Shown here: positions 17,549 to 35,834 of the stretch, piece after piece
How positions within the stretch are numbered: position 1 is the stretch's first letter
Layout: the number at the start of each line of letters is the position of its first letter
DNA from: Candidatus Hydrothermia bacterium
GTDB lineage: Bacteria; Hydrothermota; Hydrothermia; UBA1063
Direction: 5' to 3'
Assembly (NCBI GenBank): GCA_049719805.1
Contig: JBNARF010000002.1
Location: 275,495-339,494, forward strand
Length of the DNA stretch: 64,000 bases
Position numbers and translations under genes: made by a program
The notes under the pieces: generated by a model
Seen by the model: the letters and a program-made list of their open reading frames with translations, nothing else
Told to the model about the DNA's origin: nothing
Database searches by the model: none

Positions 17549-18207
17549 AGAAGTTATTTGATGTTCTTTTCGAGCATTTTGGGCCTCAAAACTGGTGGCC
17601 CGGTGATTCACCCCTTGAAATAATTGTGGGAGCAGTTCTCATGCAGAATACTGCTTGGAAAAATGTTGAAAAAGCGATAACAAACTTGAAAGAAAAGGGT
17701 CTTTTAGATGTTGAAAAAATACTGGGGATTGAGGATTCTTACCTTGCTGAAATTATAAAACCCAGTGGGTTCTATAATCTTAAGGCGAAAAGGTTGAAAT
17801 CGGTGCTTAAGTTTGTAAAAAATAATCGCGGGATTGAGGTGATTTCAGGGAAAGAAAAACACGAATTACGAAGTGAGCTCCTTAAAATTCCGGGAGTGGG
17901 AAAAGAAACAGCGGATTCTATAATACTTTACGCTTTGGGTAAGCCTATTTTTGTAGTGGATGCTTATACCCGCAGGATCTTAAAGAGAATTGGTATAATA
18001 GATGACGAAAATATGAGCTACGACGAAATTCAAAAACTATTTCACGAAAACCTTCCTAATGATGAGAAACTTTTTAACGAGTTTCACGCGTTATTTGTGG
18101 CCCTCGGGAAAAAGTATTGTTTAAAGAGAAATCCGTTATGTAACCTCTGCCCTGTCAAAAGTTATTGTAAATATGGGAGGGAATTTAGTGGTTCGAACGG
18201 GAATTGA
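17530..18207 (+). CDS. HhH-GPD base-excision DNA glycosylase (endonuclease III-related) with [4Fe-4S] cluster loop
   Basis: 225 aa; VLMQNTAWKNVEKAI region, helix-hairpin-helix (LLKIPGVGKETADSIILYA), C-terminal C-x6-C-x2-C-x5-C (CLKRNPLCNLCPVKSYC). Confidence 0.7.
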   Translation: MQKGTIEKLFDVLFEHFGPQNWWPGDSPLEIIVGAVLMQNTAWKNVEKAITNLKEKGLLDVEKILGIEDSYLAEIIKPSGFYNLKAKRLKSVLKFVKNNRGIEVISGKEKHELRSELLKIPGVGKETADSIILYALGKPIFVVDAYTRRILKRIGIIDDENMSYDEIQKLFHENLPNDEKLFNEFHALFVALGKKYCLKRNPLCNLCPVKSYCKYGREFSGSNGN

Positions 18208-19360
18208 TAACATTAATAGATTTTGGCCAAAAGCGCTGAAAAGAGCTAGGATTGGCCTTCTGGCTCATTCCGCTTCGGTTAGCAGTAACTTGAAGTATTC
18301 ATGGGATGTATTGAGGGATGAAAACCTGGCAGAACTGGTGGCAATTTTTGGACCACAACATGGACTTTTTGGTGAGACCCAGGCCAATATGGTGGAGTGG
18401 GAAGGTTATAAGGATCCTGTTACAGGCTTGTACATTTACAGTCTTTACGGAAAAAACAGAAAGCCGACAAAGGAAATGCTTGAAGGAATTGATGGCATAG
18501 TTATTGATCTTCAAGATGTGGGTTCTCGCTACTATACCTACATATGGACCATGTACTTGGTTATGGAAGCTTGCCTTGAGAATAAGAAGTTTGTTGTGGT
18601 TCTTGATAGACCCAATCCAATTAGTGGCATTTCCGTTGAGGGGCCTGTCTTAAAGGAGGAATATTCTTCCTTTGTGGGTCTAAAACCCCTTCCTATAAGG
18701 CACGGAATGACCATAGGAGAAATAGCATTATACTTTAAAGAGACTTTTCTTAAAGATCTTGAACTTCATGTTATAAGAATGACGGGATGGAAGCGTGGCT
18801 TTTTCTGGTCAGATACAGGATTGGAATGGGTAAATCCTTCACCCAATATGCCTTCCGAGAAAACTGCTCTTCTATATCCCGGTATGTGCCTTCTTGAGGG
18901 CACTAATTTAAGTGAAGGAAGGGGCACTACAAGACCCTTCGAAATTTTTGGTGCACCTTTTATAGACCCCTTTAAACTTAGCGAAAAATTGAATTCCCTT
19001 AAATTAGATGGAGTTTTCTTTAGACCCCTTTACTTCATCCCGAGTTTTGACAAATTTAAAGGCGAGAGATGTGGTGGCATACAGATTCATATTCTGGATA
19101 AGAGAAAAATAAAACCCTTTAAGGTCGGAGTTGCAGTACTTATGACCGTTATGAGTATGTATCCTGAAGGTTTCAGTTGGTCTTCCGGTCCATATGAATA
19201 TGAGTTTGAAAAGAAACCGATAGACATTCTTGCGGGGACAAGTCGTTTAAGGGAAGCACTGGAAAGGGGAGAGCCTCTGAAAAAACTGGAAGAGTGGTGG
19301 AATCAAGAATCAAAGGAATTTGATGAGCGGGTAAGAAAAAAGTATCTTCTTTATGAGTGA
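18173..19360 (+). CDS. DUF1343-family protein (NamZ-like exo-beta-N-acetylmuramidase)
   Basis: 395 aa; DUF1343 signatures (GLLAHSASV, FGPQHG, DRPNP); start may be an internal Met since the ORF overlaps the upstream gene. Confidence 0.65.
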   Translation: MGGNLVVRTGIDNINRFWPKALKRARIGLLAHSASVSSNLKYSWDVLRDENLAELVAIFGPQHGLFGETQANMVEWEGYKDPVTGLYIYSLYGKNRKPTKEMLEGIDGIVIDLQDVGSRYYTYIWTMYLVMEACLENKKFVVVLDRPNPISGISVEGPVLKEEYSSFVGLKPLPIRHGMTIGEIALYFKETFLKDLELHVIRMTGWKRGFFWSDTGLEWVNPSPNMPSEKTALLYPGMCLLEGTNLSEGRGTTRPFEIFGAPFIDPFKLSEKLNSLKLDGVFFRPLYFIPSFDKFKGERCGGIQIHILDKRKIKPFKVGVAVLMTVMSMYPEGFSWSSGPYEYEFEKKPIDILAGTSRLREALERGEPLKKLEEWWNQESKEFDERVRKKYLLYE

Positions 19361-21230
19361 GCTATATATCCTTGTTTTATCCGCTGGATTCGGTGAACGC
19401 CTCAGACCTATTACTTACTCTATTCCCAAGGTTCTTTTACCTGTACTTGGCAAACCCCTCCTTATCAGGGTCCTTGATAATTTAAAAAAGTTTTTCCCGC
19501 GCTCAGAAGTTTACGTAAACTTGCACCATCTTGCTGAAAAAGTAAGCAGAAGTTTAAAGGAATTTTACCCTGAAGTTATTACCGTTTACGAGCCTCAGAT
19601 ATTAGGAACAGGTGGAGGAATTGTTAATGTTTCAAAAATCTCCCGTGGAGATAATATCCTGGTGCAAAATGGAGATATTCTAACATATTTTGATTTAAGA
19701 GGGTTTTATGAATACCATAAAAAGAATAATTTTGACATTACGCTGGCTATTAGCCAAAAAGTTTCTAAAAAAAATCTGCTGGTAAAAGGCACATTATTTC
19801 AGGGTATAAAGGAGGAAGGGCATACAGGATTTGCCGGCGTTGCTATTTATAACATGGAATTACTTCGGAACATGAGTCTGTATACTTTTGATGCTAAGGA
19901 AGTATGGGAATATTGCATAAGAAGAGGTGGACGTATTGGAGTATTTGACATTGGAGATTCCTTCTGGGTGGATGTGGGTACTCCACAAAGTTACGCCAGA
20001 TTGATACGAAATATATTGCAAAAATATGGCGAAAATGTTTTTATAAATACAACATCTTTGGATTTGCCAGTGGTGGAATTTGACGGCTTTTTCGTGATAG
20101 AAGGGGAACCTCGCCTTATTAAAGGGAGCAAATTCAGGAATGTCATTATTATCGGAGATCCTGAGGTAGAGTTCGGAATTTATGAAAACTGTCTGATTTC
20201 ACCTTCGGGTAAGACTACCTTTAGTGAGATAGAGGTTTTTGGTGGGGTGGGTAATGGGTATGAAACAGGATTTGGAGGATCTGACAGGAAGTTTATAAGG
20301 TTTTTCAAGGGCTCAGGGGAAAGATTAGTGGAATGCCATTTTGGTAATGATAGAGAAAGTTTAGAAAAACATTTAATGGCTTATAATTTACTTTTAAAAT
20401 GCGGCATCCCAGTGGCACGAATTTACAATGTGGATCATAAACGTAATGTTATTCAGATGGAAGATCTCGGAGATGTAACCCTTTATTCTTTTTTGAAGTA
20501 TCCGCCCAACAAAGTTTTTGAGAAAGAATTCTATTTTAAAGGTATTGATTATTTAGCAAGATTACATGCCTTGGGGGTTAAAGAGAAAGAATCGGAATAC
20601 TTTAGAAGGTGGCAATTTGATTACGAGTATTTTCTTTGGGAGCAAAACCATTTTTTCAACAATTTTTTGGAAAGAGTGTTGGGAGTTAAGGCAGGAAATA
20701 GTTTAAAGGAATGTTTGAGCAAAATTGCGGAGATTTCCGCGTCCTTTCCACGAGTTGTTCTGCACAGGGATTTTCAGAGTCAGAATTTAATGGTGGACAG
20801 GATGGGGGGTTTAAGAGTAATTGACTTTGTAGGAATGCGTTGGGGTCCTAAAACTTATGACCTTGTTTCTTTCCTGTTTGATCCCTACAGAGACATAGGA
20901 GAAGAACTAAGAGAGAGCTTAATCAGTTATTATATAGAGCGATATAAAGAGCTAAGTGGTAACAAACTAACTAGAGAAGAAATTGATAAGGAACTCCCTT
21001 ATATCAGGGTCCAAAGACTCCTTCAAGCTCTGGGTGCATACGGATATCTTTCCAGGGTGAAGGGTAAAACATTTTTTGAAAAGTTTTTCTTCCGAGGCGT
21101 GCAACTTCTCATTGATGTCCTAGCTCACAAAGCTTTGCGATGTAAAGAGTTAAATGAATTATTTCTGATTTTAAAAAATGCTTTTCTTGACACTAAGGAT
21201 AATATTGATTATAATATACCAATTGTTTGA
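19353..21230 (+). CDS. Bifunctional sugar-1-phosphate nucleotidyltransferase (MurU/LicC-like) / APH-fold kinase (AmgK/LicA-like)
   Basis: 625 aa; N-terminal NTP-transferase motifs (LVLSAGFGERLRP, GTGGG); C-terminal phosphotransferase Brenner motif (VVLHRDFQSQNLMV) and DFVGM metal-binding loop. Confidence 0.6.
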   Translation: MSELYILVLSAGFGERLRPITYSIPKVLLPVLGKPLLIRVLDNLKKFFPRSEVYVNLHHLAEKVSRSLKEFYPEVITVYEPQILGTGGGIVNVSKISRGDNILVQNGDILTYFDLRGFYEYHKKNNFDITLAISQKVSKKNLLVKGTLFQGIKEEGHTGFAGVAIYNMELLRNMSLYTFDAKEVWEYCIRRGGRIGVFDIGDSFWVDVGTPQSYARLIRNILQKYGENVFINTTSLDLPVVEFDGFFVIEGEPRLIKGSKFRNVIIIGDPEVEFGIYENCLISPSGKTTFSEIEVFGGVGNGYETGFGGSDRKFIRFFKGSGERLVECHFGNDRESLEKHLMAYNLLLKCGIPVARIYNVDHKRNVIQMEDLGDVTLYSFLKYPPNKVFEKEFYFKGIDYLARLHALGVKEKESEYFRRWQFDYEYFLWEQNHFFNNFLERVLGVKAGNSLKECLSKIAEISASFPRVVLHRDFQSQNLMVDRMGGLRVIDFVGMRWGPKTYDLVSFLFDPYRDIGEELRESLISYYIERYKELSGNKLTREEIDKELPYIRVQRLLQALGAYGYLSRVKGKTFFEKFFFRGVQLLIDVLAHKALRCKELNELFLILKNAFLDTKDNIDYNIPIV

Positions 21231-21250: not shown

Positions 21251-23050
21251 ATGTTTAAGACAAGTGGACCAGATTTCAAAAAAATTAAGCTCGAAGCCCA
21301 AAAGCTCATTGGGCAGGGTAAATATCAGGAAGCGTTAAATAAGTTAATAGAACTAAGCAAGCAGATCAGCGACCCAGAAGTTTACAATTCTATTGGCGAC
21401 CTCTATATCAGGTTCCAGAATAATGAGCAAGCCCTTCAATATCTCGAAAAAGCATACAAAATCTACAGAGAGCAGGATTTCAGAGAGATAGCTATTTCTG
21501 TGGCTAAGAAAATTCTTCGTATCGAAAAGGATAGGCATGATATTTACATTGATTTGGTTGAAATGGAAATGGAGAACGGTAATGTGGATAAAGCCCTTGA
21601 TTGGGCATTGGAGTTTGTAAAGCTACCTAACCCTGATCCTAGCTATGTGGGTAAGCTTTTTAGATTATTAAATGATATAGCTAATGAAATTCAGGAGAAT
21701 ACAGAACAGGCGACAAAATTCGAGAGACTCTTCATTAAATTGCAAGAGCTTGCGGAGCAGCTCTCTTTAGCTACCCTTGAGTCAGGAATTGAAATTGCGG
21801 ATGCAAAGGAATTTTTTGATAAAGGAGATTTTGAAGAATACGGTGGATTTTTTGATGCGGGTCACCCAGCTGAAGAAGCGAAGATTAAGAAAACCACCAG
21901 AAAGAAGGAAGAGCAAGAACCTGTTGAAAAGATAGAATTTTTTGAACAAGAAGAGGAAGAGAAAAGTTTTATAACTGCTTCTGGATTTTCCAATTTTCTT
22001 GAAGTGGAGAAATCTGATAATATTGAAAAAACCGTTCTGGAAGAGAAACCTACATCTTCTCATAAGTCAGAAGAAAGTGTGAAATTCGAGATTTCTGAGA
22101 AAACTGAGTTTGTAGAAGAAACTGAAGAAAAATTGGATTTGTTACCCCCTGAATCCAAGAGCGTCTCGGATAAGAGGCCGCCATCTGAGCAGTTTAAAAC
22201 AGTTTTAGAGGAAGAGCTTCCAGAGGAAATCGAGGCAGAACAAAAGGTATGGGAATCATTGACATCAAAAAAAATCACCGAACAGAAGCCGGTTCCTGAA
22301 GTAACAAGCAGTAAAGAATCTTCAGCTGAAGAGGAGGAACCTGAAAAACTCAGGGTGGCTTTTGACGAGTATGTGAAACTGAAAGAAGAGGAGAAAAAAG
22401 TCACTTTTGATGAGGTTGTAAGCGAGAAATTTAAGAGTGAATCAAAGGAAGAACCGAAACTGGAGCAAAAACCGACTGAGGGGGGAGTTCTCGAAAAAGT
22501 TGTAAAAGAGTCAACAACTGAGAAATTCTCCAAGGAGTTTAAGTCTTCCGTTTTTCAGGAAAAAGAAGCAGCACCCGCTGTAGTGCAGAAACCTAGAGAA
22601 TTTAGTGAAGCTATGTCAGATTTACTAAAGATTATAAGAGATTTCAAAGAAGATCTTGTTGGTTTAGAGACGTGGCCTTACTCTTCCGATTCTCCCTTTG
22701 AAGTTGCAAAAGAATATTACGAAATGAAGCTCTATCAGCCAGCAGTCGAAGAATTCCAGAAGCTTCTAGGAGACCCCAGATACAGGCTTCAATCAATGAC
22801 TTATTTAGGAAAGATATTCTATGAAAGGGGTGAGTTAGATTTTGCCGAGGCAATACTCAGGAAGGCTATCGAAGAAGCTGGATATATGGAGAAGGAATCC
22901 ATTGAGGCTTACTATTATCTTGCCCTAACCCTTGAGGCGCTTAAGCGTTTTATGGAAGCAAAAGAATTATATTTGAGGGTGTATATATTCGATTCAAGTT
23001 TTAGGGATGTTGCTGCAAAAGTAATGACATTAAGGAGTAAAGCACTATGA
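21251..23050 (+). CDS. Hypothetical protein: TPR-like helical termini flanking a long acidic/Lys-rich low-complexity region
   Basis: 599 aa; TPR-like N- and C-terminal segments, central ~300 aa rich in E/K/S/T; stop overlaps the next gene's start (ATGA). Confidence 0.45.
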   Translation: MFKTSGPDFKKIKLEAQKLIGQGKYQEALNKLIELSKQISDPEVYNSIGDLYIRFQNNEQALQYLEKAYKIYREQDFREIAISVAKKILRIEKDRHDIYIDLVEMEMENGNVDKALDWALEFVKLPNPDPSYVGKLFRLLNDIANEIQENTEQATKFERLFIKLQELAEQLSLATLESGIEIADAKEFFDKGDFEEYGGFFDAGHPAEEAKIKKTTRKKEEQEPVEKIEFFEQEEEEKSFITASGFSNFLEVEKSDNIEKTVLEEKPTSSHKSEESVKFEISEKTEFVEETEEKLDLLPPESKSVSDKRPPSEQFKTVLEEELPEEIEAEQKVWESLTSKKITEQKPVPEVTSSKESSAEEEEPEKLRVAFDEYVKLKEEEKKVTFDEVVSEKFKSESKEEPKLEQKPTEGGVLEKVVKESTTEKFSKEFKSSVFQEKEAAPAVVQKPREFSEAMSDLLKIIRDFKEDLVGLETWPYSSDSPFEVAKEYYEMKLYQPAVEEFQKLLGDPRYRLQSMTYLGKIFYERGELDFAEAILRKAIEEAGYMEKESIEAYYYLALTLEALKRFMEAKELYLRVYIFDSSFRDVAAKVMTLRSKAL

Positions 23051-24288
23051 TGAAGAAGGATTTAAAAGTTGAAGAAAAACCTCAAGGTAAGGTTACCTTC
23101 GTGGAGCTTCTTGAAAAGAGCGGCATCATTTCCAAAGAGGCCATTAAAGCTGCCCTTGCTGAGCAATGGGAGAGAGGGGGAACTTTAGAAGAGATTCTCG
23201 TTGAAAAGGGATACTTAAACGAGGAACAATTTGTTAAATTTATACTTGATAAATTTCCTATGCTACATTATGTGAGCTTGAAAGATATAGATATTGATAC
23301 TGAAGCTGTTGAACATATCCCAGCCAGAATTGCTAAGAAGTACTTACTGATCCCGGTTAGAAAGAAGGGGAAATCCTTAGCTGTGACCATGGCAAATCCC
23401 TTAAATAAAGAAATGCTCATCGAACTGAAAAACGTTACAGATTTGAAAATTAGACCATTTGTTTCAAAGATTTCGGAGATAAAGGAAGCCATTGCTAAGT
23501 ATTACGGAGAGATTGGAGAAGCAGAGGAAATTCCAGAACCTTTCACTGCAGATAAAGTTAAGAAAGAGATTGGAGTCCTGATAGCAAAGGATAAAACCTT
23601 TGAAAATTTCGTGGTCGGGGAAACTAATAAGCATGCCTATTTGCTTTGCGCAGATATTGCAAAAACTCGAGGAGTTGGAGAGAAGCGGCTTTTCATATGG
23701 GGGCCAGAAGGTACGGGGAAAACTCATCTTCTTCAAGCTATTGCGAACTACCTTTTAGAGAATGAAGCTCTAAGGAGATTCATATACATTGATGCTATAA
23801 AGTTTGTTACAACCCTGAAGGGTTTTAAGTCAGAGCGCGAGGTGGATCGGTATTTAAAAATTCTTACAGATCTTGATTTACTTCTCTTTGATGACTTAGA
23901 CTTTCTAATAGGTAAGGATTATGCTCAAGAGGCTTTATTTTCAGTGCTTTCTGAATTAAGAATGACCGATAAACAAGTGGTAATATCCTCATCATATCCG
24001 ATGAAGGATATGCCTACTTTGAGCGTAAAAGTAAAATCTTTAATTTCTGAATTCCTTGTAGTTGGAATGGATGAGCCCTCCGTGGAGCTTAAAAGGGACA
24101 TTGTAAAAAGATTTTTGCAGGAAGAATCACTTCCCTCTGGTGTAGTTGAGTTTCTTGTAAAGAAGCCTGGTTTAACAGTTAAAAAGATTGAATCTATTGT
24201 TCGCACATTGCTCACTTACAAGAGGATAGGAGAGAAAATTGATGAAAATCTTTTAAATAAGGTGGTTTCAGGGATTATTGAAAGTTAA
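23047..24288 (+). CDS. Fusion protein: N-terminal GspE-N (T2SSE_N/MshEN-like) domain + DnaA/Hda-like AAA+ ATPase domain, no DnaA domain IV
   Basis: 413 aa; residues ~15-155 match the GspE/PilB N-terminal domain pattern; residues ~180-400 match DnaA domain III: FVVGETNKHAY, Walker A WGPEGTGKTHLL, Walker B LLLFDDLDFL. Confidence 0.6.
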   Translation: MMKKDLKVEEKPQGKVTFVELLEKSGIISKEAIKAALAEQWERGGTLEEILVEKGYLNEEQFVKFILDKFPMLHYVSLKDIDIDTEAVEHIPARIAKKYLLIPVRKKGKSLAVTMANPLNKEMLIELKNVTDLKIRPFVSKISEIKEAIAKYYGEIGEAEEIPEPFTADKVKKEIGVLIAKDKTFENFVVGETNKHAYLLCADIAKTRGVGEKRLFIWGPEGTGKTHLLQAIANYLLENEALRRFIYIDAIKFVTTLKGFKSEREVDRYLKILTDLDLLLFDDLDFLIGKDYAQEALFSVLSELRMTDKQVVISSSYPMKDMPTLSVKVKSLISEFLVVGMDEPSVELKRDIVKRFLQEESLPSGVVEFLVKKPGLTVKKIESIVRTLLTYKRIGEKIDENLLNKVVSGIIES

Positions 24289-24302: not shown

Positions 24303-25922
24303 ATGGCTTTGTTAGGTCAACTGGGTTTGGGAGCTAAGGGCAAAACGAAAGGGAGCATAGTAGCCCTTGATATAGGTTCAAAATATGTAAAAGCTGCGTT
24401 ATTTGAGAGAAGGAAGAACGAGTTAGTGTTTAGGGGACTAGCTGTGGAAAAGGTCCCACCCGATGTGATCCTGGGTAAAGATATAATCGACCGGCAGGTT
24501 CTGGTAGATAAGATAAGGGATGCTTACTCCAAGCTTGGCACTGAAGTTAGAGATGTGGTGGTGAACGTAGCCGGTGGTGAGGTGAAAACTAAGGCCTTCG
24601 TTATACCTGACCTAAAGAAAAAAGAAAAGATAGCGGAGGCAGTGGACTGGAAGATAAAGGATGAGTTGCACGTGGATCCTACCGAGATAGTCAGGGATTA
24701 CGAACTTCTTGGAAAAAGCGAAGTGAGTGAGTCTCTGGATATGCTTGTGGGTACTGCCAAGTTGAGTGTGGTTTATGATATCATGGATATTGTGAGGGCT
24801 GCAAGACTTGAGCCTATAATGGTTACAACCGATCTCCTGGCCCTTTGGAGAGTTATTGAGGCCCTCGATTTAAAAGACCTTCCTGGAGATAACGTATTTT
24901 TCCATCTGGGTTACGAAGTGGGACTCCTAATTCATGTTAAAGATGGCAAGATCCAACAGATGATCGAAGTCCCAGCGGGTTTAAAATCATATGTGGATAA
25001 CTTATCCAGATTCTTTGACCTAAGAGTAGAAGAGGCCGAAGAAATTGTTATAAATGGCCCTACTTCCGGTATTGATAAAGTTTCTTTTGATGAGACTGTT
25101 GATTCGCTCCATGAGAGGTTTCTTTCGCCTGAAAAATATATACCTTTACTTGGTGAGCCAGGTGTTAAATTTAATTTATACATCTCTGGTGGTGGAAGTA
25201 AATTATACGGTGTAAGTGCTTTTGTTAAGAATAAGTATGGTGTCGATCTTAAATTCATAGATGTCTCAACCTTGTTTGCAGTTGAAGAACCTGTAAAGGG
25301 TATCAAAGATTATTTAAACTTACTAACTATAGTAATTGGTGATGCACTTCATTATTTCAGGAAAGGGCACAAGATAAACTTAATGCCTCAAGAAGCAGGG
25401 ATGGAAGCAGTAGCGGTTGAGGGTGAGGTTTCTTTATTACCTCATGTGGTGGGGGCACTCTCAATATGGCTTGTAATTGTCATTGTAATTGCTGTGCTGT
25501 CCATCGGAACCTCAAGGAGGATTTCAGGGCTTAAGAATCAAATAGCCAGGTTACAGGCTGAAGAGGTGGAACTTCAGAGAAAAGCTGACGAAATCAGGGG
25601 ATTTAAACAAGAAATTGAAGACGCCAGGCGAAAATTGGATCTTATTCAGCAGCTTCAAATGGGTAGAACGGTTTATGTAAGACTTCTCGATGAAATAAAC
25701 AGGGTTCTTCCCTCCGGGTGCTGGCTCGAGTCTGTAAGAAAAAGTGGTAGTTATCTTAATGTTTCTGGAGGAGCCCTTTCAAATATTAGAATATCTCAAT
25801 TTATGTCTAATCTCAAAAAGTCAGATGTAGTTGATTCTGTATACCTCCAGTCCATTGAAGTCTCTGGGGGTAGTCAACAAGAAAGATATGCAAGGTTTGA
25901 AATTAATGTTAAACTGAAATAA
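24303..25922 (+). CDS. pilM: Type IV pilus assembly protein PilM fused to PilN-like TM/coiled-coil/periplasmic region
   Basis: 539 aa; actin-like PilM N-terminus (IVALDIGSKYVKAA), then TM helix (ALSIWLVIVIVIAVLSIG), coiled coil and periplasmic domain as in PilN. Confidence 0.65.
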   Translation: MALLGQLGLGAKGKTKGSIVALDIGSKYVKAALFERRKNELVFRGLAVEKVPPDVILGKDIIDRQVLVDKIRDAYSKLGTEVRDVVVNVAGGEVKTKAFVIPDLKKKEKIAEAVDWKIKDELHVDPTEIVRDYELLGKSEVSESLDMLVGTAKLSVVYDIMDIVRAARLEPIMVTTDLLALWRVIEALDLKDLPGDNVFFHLGYEVGLLIHVKDGKIQQMIEVPAGLKSYVDNLSRFFDLRVEEAEEIVINGPTSGIDKVSFDETVDSLHERFLSPEKYIPLLGEPGVKFNLYISGGGSKLYGVSAFVKNKYGVDLKFIDVSTLFAVEEPVKGIKDYLNLLTIVIGDALHYFRKGHKINLMPQEAGMEAVAVEGEVSLLPHVVGALSIWLVIVIVIAVLSIGTSRRISGLKNQIARLQAEEVELQRKADEIRGFKQEIEDARRKLDLIQQLQMGRTVYVRLLDEINRVLPSGCWLESVRKSGSYLNVSGGALSNIRISQFMSNLKKSDVVDSVYLQSIEVSGGSQQERYARFEINVKLK

Positions 25923-25935
25923 AGGAGGTTTAATT

Positions 25936-26385
25936 ATGAAGAGGTATTTTTACCTTATAATTGCAGTAGTCCTTGGTCTTGTGCTTTCATCCTGTGAAAA
26001 GGTGGATAAAGACGCTACACTGACAGGTCGGGTAGGGTATGCCATTGCGTATATCGATACGGTTCATCAGGAAACCACCTTTGTTTTTCAAAATGCAGCG
26101 GGTGCAAGGGTTTATTTAATGGGTGATGATGCTTCACCTAATCCTTATACAGGTCCGGTACTTGAAACCACTACTGATTCCACCGGAACTTATCAGTTTG
26201 TCGTAAATGCTGTGACTGAGCCCAGTACCTCTTTTATCCCTACTAACAATTTTGGGATTAAGATTCAGGTGTTCTACTTTGATAATATAATTGGCCCAGC
26301 CTATGGAGAACTTAGCGGATATCACTTTACGCCCGGGAAAGACGCCACACTTCCAATAATATATCTTAAGCGGCAAACTCAGTAG
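25936..26385 (+). CDS. Small lipoprotein, beta-sandwich-like (carboxypeptidase-regulatory-like); unknown function
   Basis: 149 aa; signal peptide with lipobox LVLSSC; TGTYQF-type motif; AGGAGG RBS; sits between pilMN and pilO. Confidence 0.5.
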   Translation: MKRYFYLIIAVVLGLVLSSCEKVDKDATLTGRVGYAIAYIDTVHQETTFVFQNAAGARVYLMGDDASPNPYTGPVLETTTDSTGTYQFVVNAVTEPSTSFIPTNNFGIKIQVFYFDNIIGPAYGELSGYHFTPGKDATLPIIYLKRQTQ

Positions 26386-26394: not shown

Positions 26395-26985
26395 ATGGAA
26401 AAATTAAAATCTCCGGCAGTAATATGGCTTTTAGGAGTAATTATATACGTATTGACCTTTATGTTCCTCTGGAATTCCATGTATGCCTCCAAATCCAGGG
26501 AACTCAAGACAGTAGAAGCAAAATATAAGGAGCAATACTCTAGAGTTCAGAATCTTCGTGAATTTGTAAAGGATTATGATAGAATAATAAGAGAAAAGGA
26601 CTCTTTGCTTGCCCTGTGGGAGGAGACTCAGAGGTTTTTGCCTCAGGAAGAAAATATGGACACATGGCTTTCTCAGATTACTGGTATGGCCATTAGTTCA
26701 GGGGTTCAAATATACAGTTTTAAGCCACAGTCACCCAGACAGCAGGAATTATATCGAGAGTATCCCATTGTGATGAAGGTAAGGGGTGGCTTCCATGAGC
26801 TTGGTACATTTATAAGCTTTATAGCCAACTCAGAGAGGATAATGAGTGTGGAGAATCTTCAACTACAACGTGTATCAGGACAAGAAATAGAGAGTGGACA
26901 AACGGTTGATGCTGAATTGACGGTTATATGTTATGTTTATAGTCCAGTGCAGGGGGCCGGAAAACCATCGGGAGGTTCACGATGA
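26395..26985 (+). CDS. pilO: Type IV pilus assembly protein PilO-like
   Basis: 196 aa; N-terminal TM helix, coiled coil, periplasmic domain; position between pilMN and pilP/pilQ. Confidence 0.55.
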   Translation: MEKLKSPAVIWLLGVIIYVLTFMFLWNSMYASKSRELKTVEAKYKEQYSRVQNLREFVKDYDRIIREKDSLLALWEETQRFLPQEENMDTWLSQITGMAISSGVQIYSFKPQSPRQQELYREYPIVMKVRGGFHELGTFISFIANSERIMSVENLQLQRVSGQEIESGQTVDAELTVICYVYSPVQGAGKPSGGSR

Positions 26986-27770
26986 GAAAAATTGTATTTT
27001 TTAATTTTTTATTTATTACATTATTGCTTAGCACTTTGCGAGCCCAGAATATGATAACTTCTTATTCTGTTCAAGAATCCGATGAAGGAGTTAGCATTAT
27101 TCTCGAGTTCTCTGAAGGGGTACCTCAGTATAGAGATTTTACCCTTGCAAATCCTCCCAGGATAGTGGTAGATTTGATTAACGTGGGGTATTCCTTAGGG
27201 GGAAAGCTTTTCGTAGTGGGAAAAGGTGGAGTGGAGCGAATAAGAGGAGCTCAGTACCAGAGAGAGCCGGAACTTGTTGCAAGAATTGTTCTTGATGTAG
27301 ATGAGTTTAGAAGCTACTCCATAGTAACATCGGAGAAATCCCTTATAATAAAAGTAGGTGGTATATCCAGCGTACCCTATTCCTCTTCTGCGCCAGGCGA
27401 AGCTGCTCCAGCACCTACCGAGAAAACCACTACAGTAAAAACTGAAGAAAAACAATACAAATTGGAAGTTGGGGAGAAGTACTTCTATTCTTCAAGGGGT
27501 AAAAAAGACCCCTTTAAGCCAGAAGCATTTGGTGAAGAGGAAGAACTTTTAAATGTTAGCGAGGCAAAACTCCTTGGGATTATAAAAAGCGATGAAGGAA
27601 ATGTAGCCCTTCTTCAGGATAGAAGGGGAGTAGGCTACGTTTTGAAAGAAGGAGACAGGGTCAGAAACGGTCGGGTAGTAAAGATTGAATCCGACCGTGT
27701 AGTTTTCGCTATTGTAGATTTTGGTTTTACAAGAAGGGTTGAATTAAAATTGGAGGAAGAAAATAAATAA
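26982..27770 (+). CDS. Secreted AMIN-domain protein with C-terminal PilP-like domain
   Basis: 262 aa; signal peptide; AMIN-like motifs (PPRIVVDLINV, ARIVLDVDE); Pro/Ala/Thr linker; C-terminal KDPFKP...LLGII...VKIESDRVVF resembles PilP. Confidence 0.5.
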   Translation: MRKIVFFNFLFITLLLSTLRAQNMITSYSVQESDEGVSIILEFSEGVPQYRDFTLANPPRIVVDLINVGYSLGGKLFVVGKGGVERIRGAQYQREPELVARIVLDVDEFRSYSIVTSEKSLIIKVGGISSVPYSSSAPGEAAPAPTEKTTTVKTEEKQYKLEVGEKYFYSSRGKKDPFKPEAFGEEEELLNVSEAKLLGIIKSDEGNVALLQDRRGVGYVLKEGDRVRNGRVVKIESDRVVFAIVDFGFTRRVELKLEEENK

Positions 27771-27784: not shown

Positions 27785-28969
27785 ATGGGGATTTTTAGAA
27801 AAGCGCTTCTTATCCTGCTTACGGTGAGTGTAATATCTGCTCAAGAAGCCCGAATCACCATGAGTGTAGAACAGGCAGATATAAAAACCGTATTGAGAGC
27901 CTTTGCAGAAGTTGGGAGAGTTAATATAATTACAACACCGTCCGTAACTCAGAAAGTTACTTTTAACATAAAAGATGTACCCTGGAGACTGGCTCTAAAA
28001 TCCTTGCTTGATGCCTATGGGCTTGCAATGATTGAAAGTGAGGGACTCATCACCATTATGACTCAACAGGAGTTTGCAAACTTAAAAACAGCAGCGGACC
28101 TGGATATTAAAGTACTTAAAGTACGTTATGCCGATGCCCGAAAAGTTGCAGAGGTCTTAAAGTCGCAGTTATCTCCAAGAGGAGATATTAAGTTGGATGA
28201 AAGCTCTAACGCCCTTATTGTCACGGATCTCAGAGTAAACCTGTACAGAGTGGAGGATCTCCTCACCCAGGTAGATAAGCCTTACCCCCAGGTTATGATA
28301 AAAGGAAGAATAGTGGAAGTGGACTACAATGAGTCAAGAAGGCTTGGGTCAGAGCTTAAAGCAATTAGGTTTGGAAATCCCGGTTTCGAAGCCTCACCCT
28401 ATACTGCTGGAGGACTTGAACCTGAAAACGCAACTTATTTAACGGTGAATTATCTCGGACCTAATGCTGCAAGAATTGAGGCAGCTATTGATGCTCTTGA
28501 GGGCAAATCAAAAGCCAATACCATTTCTGAGCCTAAAATCATGGTCCTTGACAATGAAAAGGCATCTATATATTCGAAGATAAGGGTGCCGGTTATTTCA
28601 AGGGATATGGCCGGAAATACTGTCGTTCAGTTTGAAGAAACCGGTATAAGCCTTGAAGTAACACCTCATATTATTCCAGATGGCAAAGTGGTTCTACACA
28701 TTAAAACAGAGACTGGGGACCTCACCGGATATTCTGCTGCTGGTCAACCAATAACCTCCAAGAGAGGAGCAGAGACGAAGGTTACAGTACCTGATGGAGA
28801 AACTGTATTAATTGGTGGTGTTATCATTGACAAGGATAAGAAAGCTAATTCAGGCCTTCCTTTGCTTTTGAGAATCCCCATTTTAGGCCAGATTTTTGGT
28901 CGTCATTCTGTAGAAAAAAGTAAGGCTGAGATTTTGATATTCTTAACACCCACTGTGGTGAGAGAATGA
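27785..28969 (+). CDS. pilQ: Type IV pilus secretin PilQ (minimal form)
   Basis: 394 aa; signal peptide, secretin N-domains, C-terminal secretin signature (GETVLIGGVI...PLLLRIPILGQIFG...ILIFLTPTVV). Confidence 0.85.
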   Translation: MGIFRKALLILLTVSVISAQEARITMSVEQADIKTVLRAFAEVGRVNIITTPSVTQKVTFNIKDVPWRLALKSLLDAYGLAMIESEGLITIMTQQEFANLKTAADLDIKVLKVRYADARKVAEVLKSQLSPRGDIKLDESSNALIVTDLRVNLYRVEDLLTQVDKPYPQVMIKGRIVEVDYNESRRLGSELKAIRFGNPGFEASPYTAGGLEPENATYLTVNYLGPNAARIEAAIDALEGKSKANTISEPKIMVLDNEKASIYSKIRVPVISRDMAGNTVVQFEETGISLEVTPHIIPDGKVVLHIKTETGDLTGYSAAGQPITSKRGAETKVTVPDGETVLIGGVIIDKDKKANSGLPLLLRIPILGQIFGRHSVEKSKAEILIFLTPTVVRE

Positions 28970-29526
28970 AAATAAGATTTTTCAATCACAAGAAGGGCCT
29001 CACATTAGTTGAGGTCCTTCTTGTGATTTTTATTATCAGTATCTTAGTAGCAATACCTTTCTGGGGGGGGACTCAATATATAGCCCGCAACAGGCTAAGA
29101 AGTGAAGCGGTTAAGATTAAATCCTTTACCGAAAACGAGAGAACCAATGCTATGGCCATGACCACAAGACGTGCCATAGAGTTCAATGGGTGGGATGTAA
29201 CAATTTACGTGGAAGATCTATCGCGCCCTTTGCCTAATCTGGATTCTATTGTTGCCACTTACCCCAATTACTTTAGCTCTAAAATAAATTTCGGCGGGCT
29301 TCCGGGTGCGACGGCTCTAAGGGGAGGTTCCATTGACTCCGATGGTGTAATGTTTGGGAGTTCTCAGAATAATAACAGGTTGGTCTTCACAGCCTTTGGA
29401 CTTGTTGAGAATCCCGGAGAGCTATATATAAATGATGGACGAAATCTAATGTGTATCGCTGTTAACGGATTTGGACAAGTTAGAATATATAGATGGACAG
29501 GGGGAAGCTGGAATGAAGTTAAATAA
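28966..29526 (+). CDS. Prepilin-type minor pilin/pseudopilin (FimU/GspH-like)
   Basis: 186 aa; class III signal peptide KKG/LTLVEVLLVIFIISILVAI with Glu at +5. Confidence 0.65.
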   Translation: MKIRFFNHKKGLTLVEVLLVIFIISILVAIPFWGGTQYIARNRLRSEAVKIKSFTENERTNAMAMTTRRAIEFNGWDVTIYVEDLSRPLPNLDSIVATYPNYFSSKINFGGLPGATALRGGSIDSDGVMFGSSQNNNRLVFTAFGLVENPGELYINDGRNLMCIAVNGFGQVRIYRWTGGSWNEVK

Positions 29527-29935
29527 AAAAGGTTTTTCTCTTATTGAGCTTCTCGTGGCTCTTTCTATACTGGCTATTGGACTCCTCGGTATAATTCCCC
29601 TTGCTATCACCACTATACGCCTCAATACCTATCAGAATCAAATGCTTAATGCTAAGTATTTAGCAGAGAGGCAGGCGGAATTTTTAAGAAGTATTACGTT
29701 TACTGCACCTGAACTCGCAAATGATAACGACAACAATGACCTATACGATACCGCAAACCCTGACCACATTCTTGCTACAACCATTGAAGGGATCACATAT
29801 AATGTGATGTGGAACATTGTGGATGATTCTGCCGGGACTAGAACTATTAATATAATAGTTCAGTGGGTTACGCCACGAACTGGAGAAACAAAAAACTATA
29901 ATATTACCCTCGTAAGGAGTAGCTATGAAATTTAG
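29513..29935 (+). CDS. Prepilin-type minor pilin (PilV-like)
   Basis: Prepilin motif KKG/FSLIELLVALSILAIGLLG; chosen start ATG 29513 (MKLNKKGF...), ORF track starts at 29471; overlaps upstream gene by 14 nt. Confidence 0.65.
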   Translation: MKLNKKGFSLIELLVALSILAIGLLGIIPLAITTIRLNTYQNQMLNAKYLAERQAEFLRSITFTAPELANDNDNNDLYDTANPDHILATTIEGITYNVMWNIVDDSAGTRTINIIVQWVTPRTGETKNYNITLVRSSYEI

Positions 29936-30827
29936 AAGAGCTATAACACTCTTGGAACTTATTGTGGCTTTGGGCATATTATCTGTGCTTCTTACTAGTG
30001 TTTTTATAGTATATAGAAATCAAATGAGGACAGCCACCACTCAGCAAAGTATTTCCGTTCTCCAGACTGATATTCAGCAGGCTTTTAACATTCAAAAGTG
30101 GGATATGCTGATGAGCGGGTATGGTGTTAGTGCAAATGTTGCTCCCATATGGAGCATAAATAAGACAAATGCCCCTGATTCTTTAATATTACGGAGCACG
30201 GGTTTTCTTATTGGTGGTACCACCCGCTGGAGTTACGTTATGGATGCAATGACGGGGACTGAACTTATCGTTGGGCGCTGGAATGACGAAAGGGAAGATA
30301 TTCATGTTGGTGACGTGATTGTAATAATGACTGATAGAAAGGGTCAGATAGCTCCACCTGTTTCTGTCACAGCTCGCGAGGCGATGACTTATAACAATCA
30401 GGATGCGTACAGGCTGACCTTAAGTGGGAATGTTCAAACGGCTCAGGGTAACTTTGTCTTTGTGGTTCCTGGAGGTCAATTTCAAACTGTAGTTTATTGG
30501 GTTAGAAATGACACGCTGTTTCGGGGGAATGAGCCCTTTTTAACGGGAGTTGAAGATTTTCAGGTATCTCACTGGGTGGACTTAAATGGCAATGGGATAG
30601 AGGATGTGGGGGAGAGGGTTATGAATCCTTCTGGTGTAAGTAATTTTACGGGTTTCTTAAGGTCTACAAGGGTTAGTCTTGTGCTTTTAGGTCCTGTGGA
30701 TAGAGATTATACATTCCCTGATAATCAAATTACTGTGGAAGATCATACCTATACAATTACCGGGTCTGCGAGGAATAGAAGGCGCAGGTTTTATACCATA
30801 GAAGTAAAAGCGAGGAATATAAGATGA
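29925..30827 (+). CDS. Prepilin-type minor pilin (PilW-like), atypical Ala at -1
   Basis: 300 aa; N-terminus MKFRRA/ITLLELIVALGILSVLL with Glu at +5 but Ala instead of Gly before the cleavage site. Confidence 0.55.
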   Translation: MKFRRAITLLELIVALGILSVLLTSVFIVYRNQMRTATTQQSISVLQTDIQQAFNIQKWDMLMSGYGVSANVAPIWSINKTNAPDSLILRSTGFLIGGTTRWSYVMDAMTGTELIVGRWNDEREDIHVGDVIVIMTDRKGQIAPPVSVTAREAMTYNNQDAYRLTLSGNVQTAQGNFVFVVPGGQFQTVVYWVRNDTLFRGNEPFLTGVEDFQVSHWVDLNGNGIEDVGERVMNPSGVSNFTGFLRSTRVSLVLLGPVDRDYTFPDNQITVEDHTYTITGSARNRRRRFYTIEVKARNIR

Positions 30828-31273
30828 AAAAAGGAGTTGCTTTAATAACGGTGATTCTCGTAGTTGCGTTTCTTGTGGTTTTAGGTGGAATAACAGCCTA
30901 CATGGTCCAGAGAAGTTTGAGAATTACCGGGACCTTCAGAAGGGCTCTATCCACCTTTGAGGCTGCGGAAGGTGGTATTGAGATAGGTGTGAATGAGATA
31001 TGGTCTGCTTCAGAAGAAGGAAGATCACTGGGAACGATAACGAGGAACGTAGGACAAAGGTCAGTAACTGTAACACCATCTCGTCTTTTTGTGATGACGG
31101 AAAGGGGTGGCTCATTAGAGTTTGCTGCGGCATACGAAGGTGTTGGAAGGGGAGTAGGAGGGGGTGGTGCTGCAATATTTTATAGAATCTTATCTTTATC
31201 CCGCGGTGGACCTGAAGATAGGGTGGAACTTGAAGTTTTATATAGGAAAGTTGTAGGTATAATAGCACAATAA
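30824..31273 (+). CDS. PilX-like minor pilin / pilus assembly protein
   Basis: 149 aa; N-terminal hydrophobic helix (GVALITVILVVAFLVVLGGITAY) lacking Glu5, as in PilX. Confidence 0.5.
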   Translation: MKKGVALITVILVVAFLVVLGGITAYMVQRSLRITGTFRRALSTFEAAEGGIEIGVNEIWSASEEGRSLGTITRNVGQRSVTVTPSRLFVMTERGGSLEFAAAYEGVGRGVGGGGAAIFYRILSLSRGGPEDRVELEVLYRKVVGIIAQ

Positions 31274-31284: not shown

Positions 31285-34200
31285 GTGATAATTATGTTTA
31301 AAAAAAGGTGGTTATTTGGTACATTAATGATTATAGTGGGGGCACTCATGGCTCAAACCACTGAGATGCCCTGCAACGTTCCGCCGTTTTTGGCGGAGAA
31401 AATTCCGCCGAATATCTTAGTTATTATGGACAATTCTGGTTCTATGGGTGAAATGGCATATAATGAGCCTTATAACCCTAACAAAAAATACTATGGCTAT
31501 TTTAATCCCGATGCAGTTTATCGTTATGACAACAATGAATGGGTTCCTGTAGATCAAAGTGCAAACTTTAATACCACCTGGCCTGGAAACCTCTTGAACT
31601 GGGCAATTATGTCACGTTTCAGTGTTTTAAAGAAAGTTCTTGTGGGTGGAAAGGCAACGGCACGAAGCCCCAGGGGATTTGCCCACACCCTGATTTGTGA
31701 GTCACGCAATTCCTGGGATAAATATTACACATATGGCGGAAGTAAATACCGTTTTACCGTTTCCGGTGGAAGTGCTGGATCTGCGAGTAGTATAGTAATA
31801 AGGAGATGGACAGGAAGGAATTGGGTGCAACTGCTTTCTGCAACTAATAAAGTTGCAATCGACTCAACCTTCTCCCGAGGTGTTATTCAGAAGCTTGGTG
31901 ATAAGGATATAGATGGCAGATGGGATGATGACACTCCGAGATTCTGGCTAATAATGTTTAATAGCAGAGGGAATAACAGTGAAATGGGGTCAGGTAGTAC
32001 AACCCCAGTAAATGTCAGCGGGGAACACGATGGCGGTCGTGTGGAGTCTTATTATCAGGATAACAATTCAATGAGTGATTTTGTTAATGCCATTCAGAAT
32101 GCCAAAGCAGAGACCTGGACCCCCCTCGCTGAATGTTTACTTGAGACATGCTGGTATTTTAGACAAGTTCCCACACCTCTTTTCTTCCCTAATGACTACG
32201 GGACGGACCGGCAATGGGATCCTATGGAGCCTAAGAGTGTATGGTGCCGAAAGTCTTTTGTGCTCTTTTTGACCGACGGCCAGGCAACGAGAGATAGAGA
32301 TCCCGTTTTGCATCAGCATATAGGTGATTACGATGGTGACGGAATGGAACCATCGTTTTATCAGGGTGTAGATGATCCACAGTTCAGCAGCCATTACCTT
32401 GATGATGTAGCCTTTTGGATGCATACCAACGATCTGAGACCTGATATCCCGGGGACCCAGAACCTCACCCTTTATGGTGTCTTTGTTTTTGGATATGGGC
32501 ACGATCTTTTAAAAGAAGCCTGTAAAGATGGCGGATTCATCGATTACAATGGTAACAATAGACCTGACCTTACGAGAGAGTGGGATCATAATGAAGACGG
32601 AGTTCCCGATACATATTTCGAGGCACAGGAGGGAGAGCAGATCGAAAAGGCTATTATGGATGCGATACTCTCTATTTTAGCGAGGGTAAGTTCAGCTACG
32701 GCTGCATCTGTGGTCACTCAGACCCAGAGAGGTGAAGGAACTATATATCAGGCCTTTTTCCAGCCCACTTACACTACGCCTCTGGGCGAGATAAAATGGC
32801 TTGGACAATTGGTGGGCTACTTTGTTGATAAAAATGGAAATATTAGAGAAGATAGCAATAATGATTTAAGACTCACTAGTGATGACCGTATTTTGAAATT
32901 TAAGACTGAAGGAATTGAAACCAGAGTTGAGAGATGGGCTGCCACTTCTGATGATAATCCCCTTTACAAGGTTGATGAAGTAGACCTCTGGGATGTTAAT
33001 TTCCTCTGGGATGCTGGCAAAAGATTACTGGAAAGAAGCGCTGACGAGCGGATTATAAAAGCAATAATTAAACAGAATAACACATTTGCTCTCATAGATT
33101 TCAAAACCAATAACAGGAGCCTTCTCAGCTCTTACATGGAAGGTTCTGATGCCTTCAAGGACTCTTTAATAAATTACATTAGAGGTGTTGATTATAATAA
33201 TCCCAGCTGGCGATCCAGGACATTTGAGCCGAATAAGGTCTGGAAACTTGGTGATATAGTCTACTCTACGCCGACTTTTGTTGGAAGACCGACGGAAAGG
33301 TATGATCTCATATATGATGATGTATCTTACAGGGAATTTTACAACCGGAAGAAGAACAGGCGAAACATAGTCCTTGTTGGCGCCAACGATGGAATGCTCC
33401 ATGCGTTTAATGCCGGTATTTTTGATACACTTGAAAGAAGGGTAGATGGAATGGGTAGGAGTTTGGGTGAAGAATTGTGGGCAGTTATTCCTATGAACCT
33501 CCTTCCCCATTTGAAATGGCTGAAGGATCAGCAATATTGCCATGTTTACTATGTTGACCTTAAACCAAAAGTTACAGACGTAAAGATATTTAGTGATGAT
33601 GAGGATCATCCTGAAGGCTGGGGTACTGTCGCCATCGTAGGAATGAGATTTGGAGGAACTCCAATATCCATATCCAGTGGCACGTATAGGTCTGCTTTCT
33701 TTGCTCTTGACATTTCTAACCCAGATAATCCCCGGGTGTTGTGGGAGTTTACAGATCCCAATCTTGGTTATACTATTTCCTATCCCTCTGTTTTGAAAGT
33801 TGTGGATCAGAACGGTGAAAAGTGGTTCGTTGTTTTTGGTTCTGGAACCACAACTACCCCCACAGGACACACTTCCAATCAAAATGCTTATTTCTATATC
33901 CTTGATCTTAAGACGGGAGCCCTTTTAAGAAAGATACAGATACCATATCCTTCAAATCAGACGCAAGGTGCGTTTTGTGGTAATCCCATCTCCGTGGACG
34001 TTAAGCTGGATTACAGTTGTGATATAATCTATTTACCTGTTACATATATTGAAAGATCAGGTAATACAAATATAGAAAAGGGTGCTCTTTACAGGATAGT
34101 AACTGGCAATAGTACAAATCCGCAAGCCTGGTCCCTCTCCATGGCGATAAGACTAGATAGGCCAGTAACCTCAGGGACTGCCGCTTCCATGGACGAATAT

Positions 34201-34857
34201 GGTAATTTATGGGTATTCTTTGGGAGCGGGAAGTACTTTACAGACCAGGATGAGATTGATTCAAGGACCAATTATCTTCTAGGATTTAAGGATCAGTACT
34301 GGAATGGTGGTTGGACAAGTGCTACCTCTCCAAGCTATGCCCTTTCAGATCTTCTCAATGCAACTAATATTAATGTAAGAGTTGACACTTCCACTGGCAG
34401 TGCCACTGTTGAAAACGTACAAGGCCTTCCAAATAATTTATCTTTCGAAGCCTTTGTGGATTCTGTTAATAGAAGATATAAGGGGTGGTATGTGGAGCTC
34501 CAGAGTGGTGAAAAGTCCCTTAATTTCCCATTAGTTCTTGGCGGTGCTGTATTTTTCACCACCTATAAGGTTATTGATGACCCTTGTGCTTTTGGTGGTC
34601 AGGGATGGCTCTATGTACTCTATTACAAGACTGGAACAGCATCTAAAAATGCGCCCCTGGGTTTACTACAGAACAATTACGCTGCCACCAAGGTTGAAGT
34701 ACAGGGTATGCCTGCTTCTCCTGCAGTTCACATAGGATCAAGGGATGAGGCAAGGGCGGTGGTTCAGACCTCAACTGGCGAGATTATTTCCATGCCCGTG
34801 GAACTTCCCTGGAGTCCGAAGAGCGGTGCAAGGGTCTGGAGACCCGCAAACTTTTAA
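31285..34857 (+). CDS. PilY1/PilC-like pilus tip adhesin with N-terminal vWA (MIDAS) domain
   Basis: 1190 aa; signal peptide; MIDAS motif VIMDNSGSM near the N-terminus; large C-terminal region consistent with a PilY1 beta-propeller; follows four minor pilin genes. Confidence 0.65.
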   Translation: MIIMFKKRWLFGTLMIIVGALMAQTTEMPCNVPPFLAEKIPPNILVIMDNSGSMGEMAYNEPYNPNKKYYGYFNPDAVYRYDNNEWVPVDQSANFNTTWPGNLLNWAIMSRFSVLKKVLVGGKATARSPRGFAHTLICESRNSWDKYYTYGGSKYRFTVSGGSAGSASSIVIRRWTGRNWVQLLSATNKVAIDSTFSRGVIQKLGDKDIDGRWDDDTPRFWLIMFNSRGNNSEMGSGSTTPVNVSGEHDGGRVESYYQDNNSMSDFVNAIQNAKAETWTPLAECLLETCWYFRQVPTPLFFPNDYGTDRQWDPMEPKSVWCRKSFVLFLTDGQATRDRDPVLHQHIGDYDGDGMEPSFYQGVDDPQFSSHYLDDVAFWMHTNDLRPDIPGTQNLTLYGVFVFGYGHDLLKEACKDGGFIDYNGNNRPDLTREWDHNEDGVPDTYFEAQEGEQIEKAIMDAILSILARVSSATAASVVTQTQRGEGTIYQAFFQPTYTTPLGEIKWLGQLVGYFVDKNGNIREDSNNDLRLTSDDRILKFKTEGIETRVERWAATSDDNPLYKVDEVDLWDVNFLWDAGKRLLERSADERIIKAIIKQNNTFALIDFKTNNRSLLSSYMEGSDAFKDSLINYIRGVDYNNPSWRSRTFEPNKVWKLGDIVYSTPTFVGRPTERYDLIYDDVSYREFYNRKKNRRNIVLVGANDGMLHAFNAGIFDTLERRVDGMGRSLGEELWAVIPMNLLPHLKWLKDQQYCHVYYVDLKPKVTDVKIFSDDEDHPEGWGTVAIVGMRFGGTPISISSGTYRSAFFALDISNPDNPRVLWEFTDPNLGYTISYPSVLKVVDQNGEKWFVVFGSGTTTTPTGHTSNQNAYFYILDLKTGALLRKIQIPYPSNQTQGAFCGNPISVDVKLDYSCDIIYLPVTYIERSGNTNIEKGALYRIVTGNSTNPQAWSLSMAIRLDRPVTSGTAASMDEYGNLWVFFGSGKYFTDQDEIDSRTNYLLGFKDQYWNGGWTSATSPSYALSDLLNATNINVRVDTSTGSATVENVQGLPNNLSFEAFVDSVNRRYKGWYVELQSGEKSLNFPLVLGGAVFFTTYKVIDDPCAFGGQGWLYVLYYKTGTASKNAPLGLLQNNYAATKVEVQGMPASPAVHIGSRDEARAVVQTSTGEIISMPVELPWSPKSGARVWRPANF

Positions 34858-35797: not shown

Positions 35798-35834
35798 TGT
35801 GCGCGCCCCTTCGGGGCGCGCACAATTTTTATTT
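35798..35834 (+). terminator. Rho-independent terminator (possibly bidirectional)
   Basis: Perfect GC-rich hairpin TGTGCGCGCCCC-TTC-GGGGCGCGCACA (35798..35824) followed by AATTTTTATTT; lies between convergent LemA (+) and DUF192 (-) genes. Confidence 0.7.

Follow-up and report, generated by a model that had tools for sequence, protein, structure and literature searches.

A predicted beta-sandwich lipoprotein encoded between pilMN and pilO in the type IVa pilus operons of the WOR-3 lineage

We identified a small gene, here called X, at positions 25936 to 26385 (+ strand) of a 64,000-nucleotide stretch of the genome of a Candidatus Hydrothermia bacterium (contig JBNARF010000002.1; the stretch as a whole is referred to below as the window). 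X encodes a predicted lipoprotein of 149 residues and lies in a type IVa pilus operon, directly between a fused pilMN gene and pilO. The same slot is occupied by X in 27/27 loci, at ~30-100% identity. X belongs to no curated family and is fixed in the WOR-3 lineage. We tentatively favor the view that the type IVa pilus (T4aP) machine of this clade has X as an obligatory subunit, a lipoprotein specific to the lineage and associated with the outer-membrane secretin or acting in the manner of a pilotin; the membrane and the partner are the parts of this reading that we infer. What is new is a machine-dedicated lipoprotein family within a re-partitioned PilP/PilQ architecture, the kind of role being already known.

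The link between X and the pilus machine was evident from the loci of its relatives. Ten loci with seven different X proteins (~30-65% identical to that of the window) have the same module order throughout, with genes for a TPR protein, an MshEN::AAA+ protein, PilMN, X, PilO, AMIN-PilP, PilQ, minor pilins, and PilY1. The outer flanks differ, containing a SprA_N-domain gene in one locus (which we take to encode SprA, a component of the type IX secretion system, T9SS), PilB/PilT and a prepilin peptidase in another, and GGDEF and RecX genes in a third. A contig scan seeded with PilO, and hence independent of X, added 13 loci that were recovered via PilO alone; X, located afterwards by its own hidden Markov model, was directly upstream of PilO in 13/13. 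Scanning metagenome contigs with the PilO profile, as well as a protein search with the same profile, returned the X-containing WOR-3 clade only. Intergenic spacing is tight over the loci (pilMN-X, -4 to +15 nt; X-pilO, 8-24 nt; pilO-pilP, -4 nt; pilP-pilQ, -4 to +16 nt), and no X homologue was found outside pilus loci among the 27. X thereby displays the strict co-occurrence and the fixed pilMNOPQ slot across divergent genomes by which we define a dedicated T4aP component operationally. A first-pass annotation of this DNA had described a lipoprotein gene inserted into the otherwise conserved pilM-N-O-P-Q order and had proposed synteny as one check; the placement stands, with PilM::PilN upstream and PilO, a protein combining AMIN and PilP-like parts, and PilQ downstream, and the relatives agree in carrying both the slot and the lipobox. 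The gene may have been inserted there or may be ancestral. Neither of the two contrary outcomes named in that annotation, a missing lipoprotein signal or homologues consistently placed outside pilus loci, was seen.

The X open reading frame (ORF) starts at the first ATG past an in-frame stop, close behind the pilMN stop codon (TAA, 25920-25922). Its N-terminus, MKRYFYLIIAVVLGLVLSSC, combines a positively charged n-region and a hydrophobic h-region with the lipobox LSSC, fits a PROSITE-type pattern, and contains the motif [LVI][ASTVI][GAS]C within ~35 residues by which bacterial lipoproteins are recognized in sequence. Cys20 is the predicted lipidated residue and is invariant in 22/22 family members, with a lipobox found in every locus. 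The ORF, an AGGAGG ribosome-binding site of its own, the pattern match, and the invariant cysteine together uphold the earlier description of a 149-residue lipoprotein gene. In a lipobox scan of the window and the loci, X was the sole lipobox ORF detected. The mature protein would have an acidic tether of ~8 residues (EKVDKDAT) ahead of the beta-sandwich; the distance from Cys20 to strand 1 is ~8 residues in all members, and most have an acid-rich stretch after the cysteine (e.g. CNEEDR, CGEEKD, CSEESH, and CEKVDKD). GC content and GC content at third codon positions (GC3) equal those of the flanking genes. Comparison with orthologues gave a ratio of nonsynonymous to synonymous substitution rates (dN/dS) of ~0.10-0.37 with dS saturated, which indicates purifying selection and hence a constrained coding gene rather than a chance ORF. 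X is also the fastest-evolving protein of the module, with a mean Kimura distance of 1.06 versus 0.49-0.96 for the PilM, PilN, PilO, AMIN, PilP homology region (HR), and PilQ domains, as computed from the ~16 loci in which X is distinct and the module complete.

The X family is small and falls outside existing classifications. X itself matched nothing in Pfam at E<=0.1 and in NCBIfam had just two matches, both far below threshold; the family profile had zero matches to PDB sequences even at E<=10. A word-indexed search of 5.8 billion proteins yielded 7 close relatives. When 1.84 billion representatives were searched exhaustively with a HMMER profile, four credible members emerged, one close and three remote (P0009-P0011). 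Two further candidates, P0012 and P0013, were rejected as long repetitive proteins matching over short stretches. After the profile search the family totals 21 clusters among the 5.8 billion proteins, none with a Pfam annotation. Orthologues are 61-75% identical and remote members ~30%. All full-length members are lipoproteins of 148-180 residues and form three length classes, set apart by beta-hairpin insertions. Every source with an organism name belongs to candidate division WOR-3, and the PilO family that co-occurs with X, of similar size, is found in WOR-3 plus 'Ca. Hydrothermia'. The conserved core reads PYxGxxLxTxTDxxGxYxF, with Y71, G73, L76, G84, Y86, and F88 invariant, and contains at residues 83-88 the 'TGTYQF' motif singled out in the first-pass annotation.

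The body of X is confidently predicted by structure modeling to be a beta-sandwich of the transthyretin / carboxypeptidase-regulatory / Cna-B class. AlphaFold2 (AF2), given an eight-sequence alignment, modeled a signal helix, then a stretch of low confidence around Cys20, and a beta-sandwich of 7-8 strands, with a predicted local distance difference test score (pLDDT) of 81.5 and a predicted template modeling score (pTM) of 0.70. For P0018, a member ~30% identical to X, five models agreed (pLDDT 85.1, pTM 0.75) and included extra hairpins. Weak matches to PF13620 (CarboxypepD_reg) occurred in 12/22 members, all below threshold (best E 0.005), the window protein having none at E<=0.1. Foldseek comparison with the PDB agreed weakly with this fold class, and the fold-level partners include SlaB, SleC, Kustc1130, Cna-B and Gram-positive pilin domains, the SusC N-terminal extension, transthyretins, and hydroxyisourate (HIU) hydrolases. 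Among these generic sandwich matches ExsB, a pilotin from type III secretion systems (T3SS), held rank 44 for X and fell outside the top 60 for the distant member, while PilP and TssJ appeared in neither list. Judged by the fold predictions and the PF13620 matches, the earlier guess of a beta-rich, CarboxypepD_reg/Cna-B-like body around TGTYQF was correct.

A second unusual feature of these operons concerns PilP and PilQ. Canonical PilP is an inner-membrane lipoprotein whose long unstructured N-terminus binds PilN/PilO and whose HR domain binds PilQ N0; it is the sole lipoprotein of the pilMNOPQ module, and canonical PilQ bears the AMIN domains (PMC5285504). Here, the profile of the 26982-27770 product matches both the AMIN domains of Myxococcus xanthus PilQ (residues 20-148, E 1.6e-15) and M. 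xanthus PilP (residues 164-240, E 9e-6), which identifies it as a true PilP homologue with an AMIN N-terminus. In all loci this AMIN::PilP protein has a signal of the signal peptidase I (SPase-I) type and no lipobox, as does PilQ. PilQ is a short form of 394 residues that lacks AMIN and has no C-terminal S-domain extension. As read from the sequences, the envelope part of the pilus machine is re-wired, with AMIN now on a non-lipidated PilP and X as the sole lipoprotein of the module. X was considered as PilP itself and rejected, since it has no PilP/GspC homology (PF04351) and the PilP homologue lies downstream; Pfam, NCBIfam, and PDB-sequence profile searches gave no similarity between X and PilP.

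X shares its operon with PilM::PilN and PilO, and processing by signal peptidase II would leave a single beta-sandwich ~8 residues from its lipid anchor; with so short a tether, it would sit right at the membrane surface. We hypothesize that X would then be sorted to the outer membrane and bind PilQ, where it may act as a pilotin and/or as a permanent lipid-anchored collar, targeting and stabilizing the secretin. We favor this secretin role because secretins usually need a cognate lipoprotein pilot (PMC3276575), and the window offers no second candidate for one. PilF, for example, is the outer-membrane lipoprotein pilotin of PilQ (PMC5285504). A further reason is that ExsB/YscW and TssJ are outer-membrane lipoproteins with a transthyretin fold in two unrelated machines, and a family of such proteins attached to envelope machines has been proposed (PMC3213119). 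Two TPR proteins of the window (21251-23050 and 4155-5768) were considered as PilF/Tgl-type pilotins and rejected, as a lipobox is absent from both and the first also lacks a signal peptide; no further pilus, Lol, or pilotin-like Pfam families turned up among the window ORFs scanned. In Escherichia coli, Asp at position +2 after the lipidated cysteine is an inner-membrane retention signal. Residue +2 of X varies (E/D/N/S/G), and the outer membrane is weakly favored because most orthologues are without Asp there. Exploratory mirror-tree analysis with partial Mantel tests showed X tracking PilQ better than PilM/N/O/P, with residual distances correlated with those of the PilQ N-part (r 0.37) and secretin domain (r 0.32; Mantel p ~0.003), compared with 0.21 for PilN and 0.16 for PilO.

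Several points weigh against an outer-membrane secretin partner. The lean of the mirror-tree analysis towards PilQ counts for little because the same method yields a spurious and physically implausible PilM-secretin r of 0.85. The slot between pilN and pilO more naturally suggests a partner of the inner-membrane alignment complex, and PilQ is without an S-domain of the kind bound by pilotins of type II secretion systems (T2SS) and T3SS. Three orthologue groups do have Asp at +2, under a rule that is E. coli's and may not be that of WOR-3. The fold is among the commonest beta-sandwiches, ExsB being only 44th in the fold list of X and TssJ absent. Finally, a TPR pilotin may be encoded elsewhere in the genome, our view comprising the window and loci of ~20 kb. 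Graded below the general reading is its more specific form, that X represents a new structural class of type IV pilus (T4P) pilotin or secretin collar with a transthyretin fold, of independent origin from the TPR pilotins and co-evolved with the re-wired module in which AMIN passed from PilQ to a delipidated PilP; this we regard as possible but doubtful.

The closest competitor, which we likewise hold to be doubtful, is that X serves as an inner-membrane accessory of the PilM/N/O/P subcomplex, held in that membrane where the PilN/PilO coiled coils have their base, and supplying the lipid anchor that PilP lost as AMIN took over its N-terminus. Genes adjacent in an operon often encode contacting subunits, and at each of the 27 loci X directly separates pilN from pilO, with the genes closely spaced or overlapping. 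The acid-rich residues after the cysteine and the Asp at +2 in some orthologues would favor inner-membrane retention by the E. coli rule, although this Asp is not conserved. PilP, the canonical inner-membrane lipoprotein (PMC5285504), has no lipobox here; however, PilN and PilO carry their own transmembrane helices, so there is no obvious need of an extra anchor. The ~8-residue tether would also keep X far from the globular domains of PilN/PilO, from PilP, and from PilQ N0, whereas canonical PilP reaches its partners by a long disordered N-terminus (PMC5285504), and neither sequence nor profile comparison relates X to PilP. The mirror-tree correlations of X with PilN and PilO are, moreover, below those with PilQ.

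We consider it improbable that X is a surface-exposed lipoprotein, or one contacting glycan or peptidoglycan, in which the acidic stretch is an export signal of the Bacteroidota type and the protein decorates the secretin rim or binds carbohydrate for adhesion or pilus positioning. The acid-rich residues of most members fit such a signal, sandwiches of the CarboxypepD_reg/Cna-B type are common in surface adhesins, SusC N-terminal extensions, and the T9SS lipoprotein PorE (PMC12773672), and the SprA_N gene beside one relative's locus hints at an envelope of the Fibrobacteres-Chlorobi-Bacteroidetes (FCB) type. Lipoprotein surface export in WOR-3 is without support, however, and X is one small domain on a very short tether, with no ligand-binding motif identified and with invariant residues that look structural; strict co-location with pilMNOPQ suits a machine subunit better than an adhesin. 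Least probable by far is a passenger gene unrelated to the pilus, or no real gene at all, a reading that synteny and selection in effect already refute. Such a reading could appeal to the want of a recognized family or an experimentally characterized homologue, yet it is opposed by the identical slot in all loci despite differing flanks, by purifying selection, the invariant lipobox, and the strong ribosome-binding site in the window, by the confident predicted folds of two independent members, and by a composition the same as that of neighboring genes.

Comparison with known systems places the proposed secretin-associated role of X among familiar functions but with unfamiliar parts. PilF, PilW, and Tgl are lipoproteins dedicated to the T4aP secretin (PMC5285504), which is the role proposed for X, but these TPR proteins are all-helical and their genes usually lie apart from pilMNOPQ, whereas X is predicted to be all-beta, is encoded in the cluster, and has no TPR match. 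TsaP is a LysM protein and structurally unlike X. The functional analogy to PilF/Tgl/TsaP drawn in the first-pass annotation therefore does not extend to structure, X being neither a TPR nor a LysM protein. PilP resembles X as a lipoprotein with a beta-sandwich body encoded inside pilMNOPQ (PMC5285504), but has its long disordered N-terminus in place of a short tether and is encoded after pilO rather than before it. The T3SS secretin pilotins ExsB/YscW (PDB 2yjl) may resemble X in fold class but share no sequence similarity with it and serve a T3SS rather than a T4P, and a pilotin role for X is putative. TssJ of the type VI secretion system (T6SS) is a lipoprotein of ~150-170 residues with a transthyretin fold, an operon-encoded core subunit of a trans-envelope machine that connects an inner-membrane partner with the outer membrane (PMC3213119). 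It differs by an additional helical domain and by an L1-2 loop that protrudes and binds TssM; X has no such insert and no T6SS context. CarboxypepD_reg (PF13620) and transthyretin-like domains share with X the fold class and the core signature G.V...GA.V.L...TTD..G.Y.F, and PorE is a T9SS lipoprotein with a domain of this type (PMC12773672). All X members nonetheless fall below the Pfam threshold, add hairpin insertions, and are stand-alone lipoproteins instead of domains of larger enzymes or transporters.

The features of X and of the surrounding operon are collected in Table 1. X is most likely co-expressed with PilM::PilN and PilO, as all three lie in the same operon, the gaps ranging from -4 to +24 nt over all loci, and a consensus and hairpin scan found no promoter- or terminator-like element isolating X. 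The promoter-like site upstream of the TPR gene is the likely start of the operon containing X, and the terminator-like hairpin past the LemA gene the likely end of the transcription unit.

Table 1. Predicted features of gene X and of the pilus operon, in window coordinates
Feature	Position	Strand	Remarks and basis
Promoter-like site, 12/12 to sigma-70 consensus (TTGACA-17-TATAAT)	21187..21215	+	upstream of TPR gene; consensus scan only
TPR protein, 599 aa	21251..23050	+	first gene of conserved module; no signal peptide, predicted cytoplasmic
MshEN domain fused to DnaA-type AAA+ ATPase domain	23047..24288	+	second gene of module; Pfam/NCBIfam
PilM::PilN fusion, 539 aa	24303..25922	+	PF11104 + PF05137; 13-nt gap to X
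Shine-Dalgarno of X, AGGAGG	25923..25928	+	ends 7 nt 5' of ATG; abuts pilMN stop; sequence reading
X signal peptide, residues 1-20	25936..25995	+	n-region MKR, h-region, lipobox L-S-S-C; pattern match
Mature X, residues 21-149 plus stop	25996..26385	+	acidic tether, then predicted single beta-sandwich
Most conserved X core, residues 70-88, PYTGPVLETTTDSTGTYQF	26143..26199	+	includes 'TGTYQF'; resembles CarboxypepD_reg signature
PilO	26395..26985	+	PF04350; 9-nt gap from X
AMIN::PilP	26982..27770	+	SPase-I-type signal without lipobox, AMIN (9.5e-10), low-complexity linker, PilP homology region (0.011)
Short PilQ secretin, 394 aa	27785..28969	+	N0/STN, one Secretin_N, secretin domain; Pfam/NCBIfam
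Four minor pilins (GspH-like, N_methyl, PilW, PilX_N)	28966-31273	+	Pfam/NCBIfam
PilY1 homologue	31285-34857	+	closes conserved module; Pfam/NCBIfam
Strong bidirectional intrinsic-terminator-like hairpin, 12 pairs, 10 GC	35798..35824	.	past LemA gene; hairpin scan

Other genes of the module have features worth recording. The TPR protein contains a very long low-complexity middle, rich in Glu/Lys/Ser (about residues 200-470), and the start of the next gene (23047-24288), which is directly upstream of pilMN in every locus examined, overlaps its end. In the product of that gene, MshEN is the cyclic di-GMP (c-di-GMP)-binding N-domain of PilB/MshE (with a match to the c-di-GMP motif NF053729) and the AAA+ module is of the DnaA/IstB type; no DnaA DNA-binding domain was detected in the protein. 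It could be a c-di-GMP-responsive regulator or an assembly ATPase of the pilus. The pairing of TPR and AAA+ proteins loosely recalls MshN/MshM, and the fusion may be more novel than X. The PilM::PilN fusion, kept in all relatives, has weak similarity to the Akkermansia Amuc_1101 PilM-like family.

Further observations concern the ends of the module. A near-perfect 19-bp inverted repeat (28984-29028), its loop 7 nt long and its tail rich in T, is located just past the pilQ stop, within the 5' end of the first minor-pilin gene; we rejected it as a conserved regulatory element because it is not conserved in 7 related loci, and it is probably strain-specific. The pilin gene at 29471-29935 (+) is listed with a TTG start and a 56-nt overlap with the previous pilin gene, but an internal ATG near 29513, with which the prepilin motif MKLNKKGFSLIELL opens, is more likely to be its true start. 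Immediately upstream of the pilus operon, both in the window and in closer relatives, is a pair of genes (18173-21230, +) for the exo-beta-N-acetylmuramidase NamZ and for a 625-residue protein in which NTP_transferase is fused to an APH-type kinase, the latter resembling an AmgK/MurU-style fusion for N-acetylmuramic acid salvage.

Secretin machines nearly always depend on small dedicated lipoproteins, of which a few cultured Proteobacteria and Myxococcus have supplied the known examples. The literature that we searched contained no T4P-associated lipoprotein of the fold of X and nothing on WOR-3 pilus architecture. The association of X with the pilus is solid and the architecture unusual; X has a generic fold, comes from a small, uncultured clade, and does not open any long-standing question. 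Practical impact is limited since the organisms are uncultured and the family small, and the immediate use of these results is that annotators gain a name for what recurs in the pilus operons of WOR-3 as a 'hypothetical protein'. If the secretin role holds, a deep-branching uncultured phylum would have solved the same problem with a different protein, in a module where lipid anchor and AMIN are re-partitioned between PilP and PilQ. As a pilotin, X would be without a described beta-sandwich precedent in type IV pili, and a case of convergence with ExsB/YscW of T3SS and TssJ of T6SS. More generally, should X prove to be a new pilotin class, lipid anchor, peptidoglycan anchor, and secretin targeting would be modular functions that can be redistributed among PilP, PilQ, and the pilotin.
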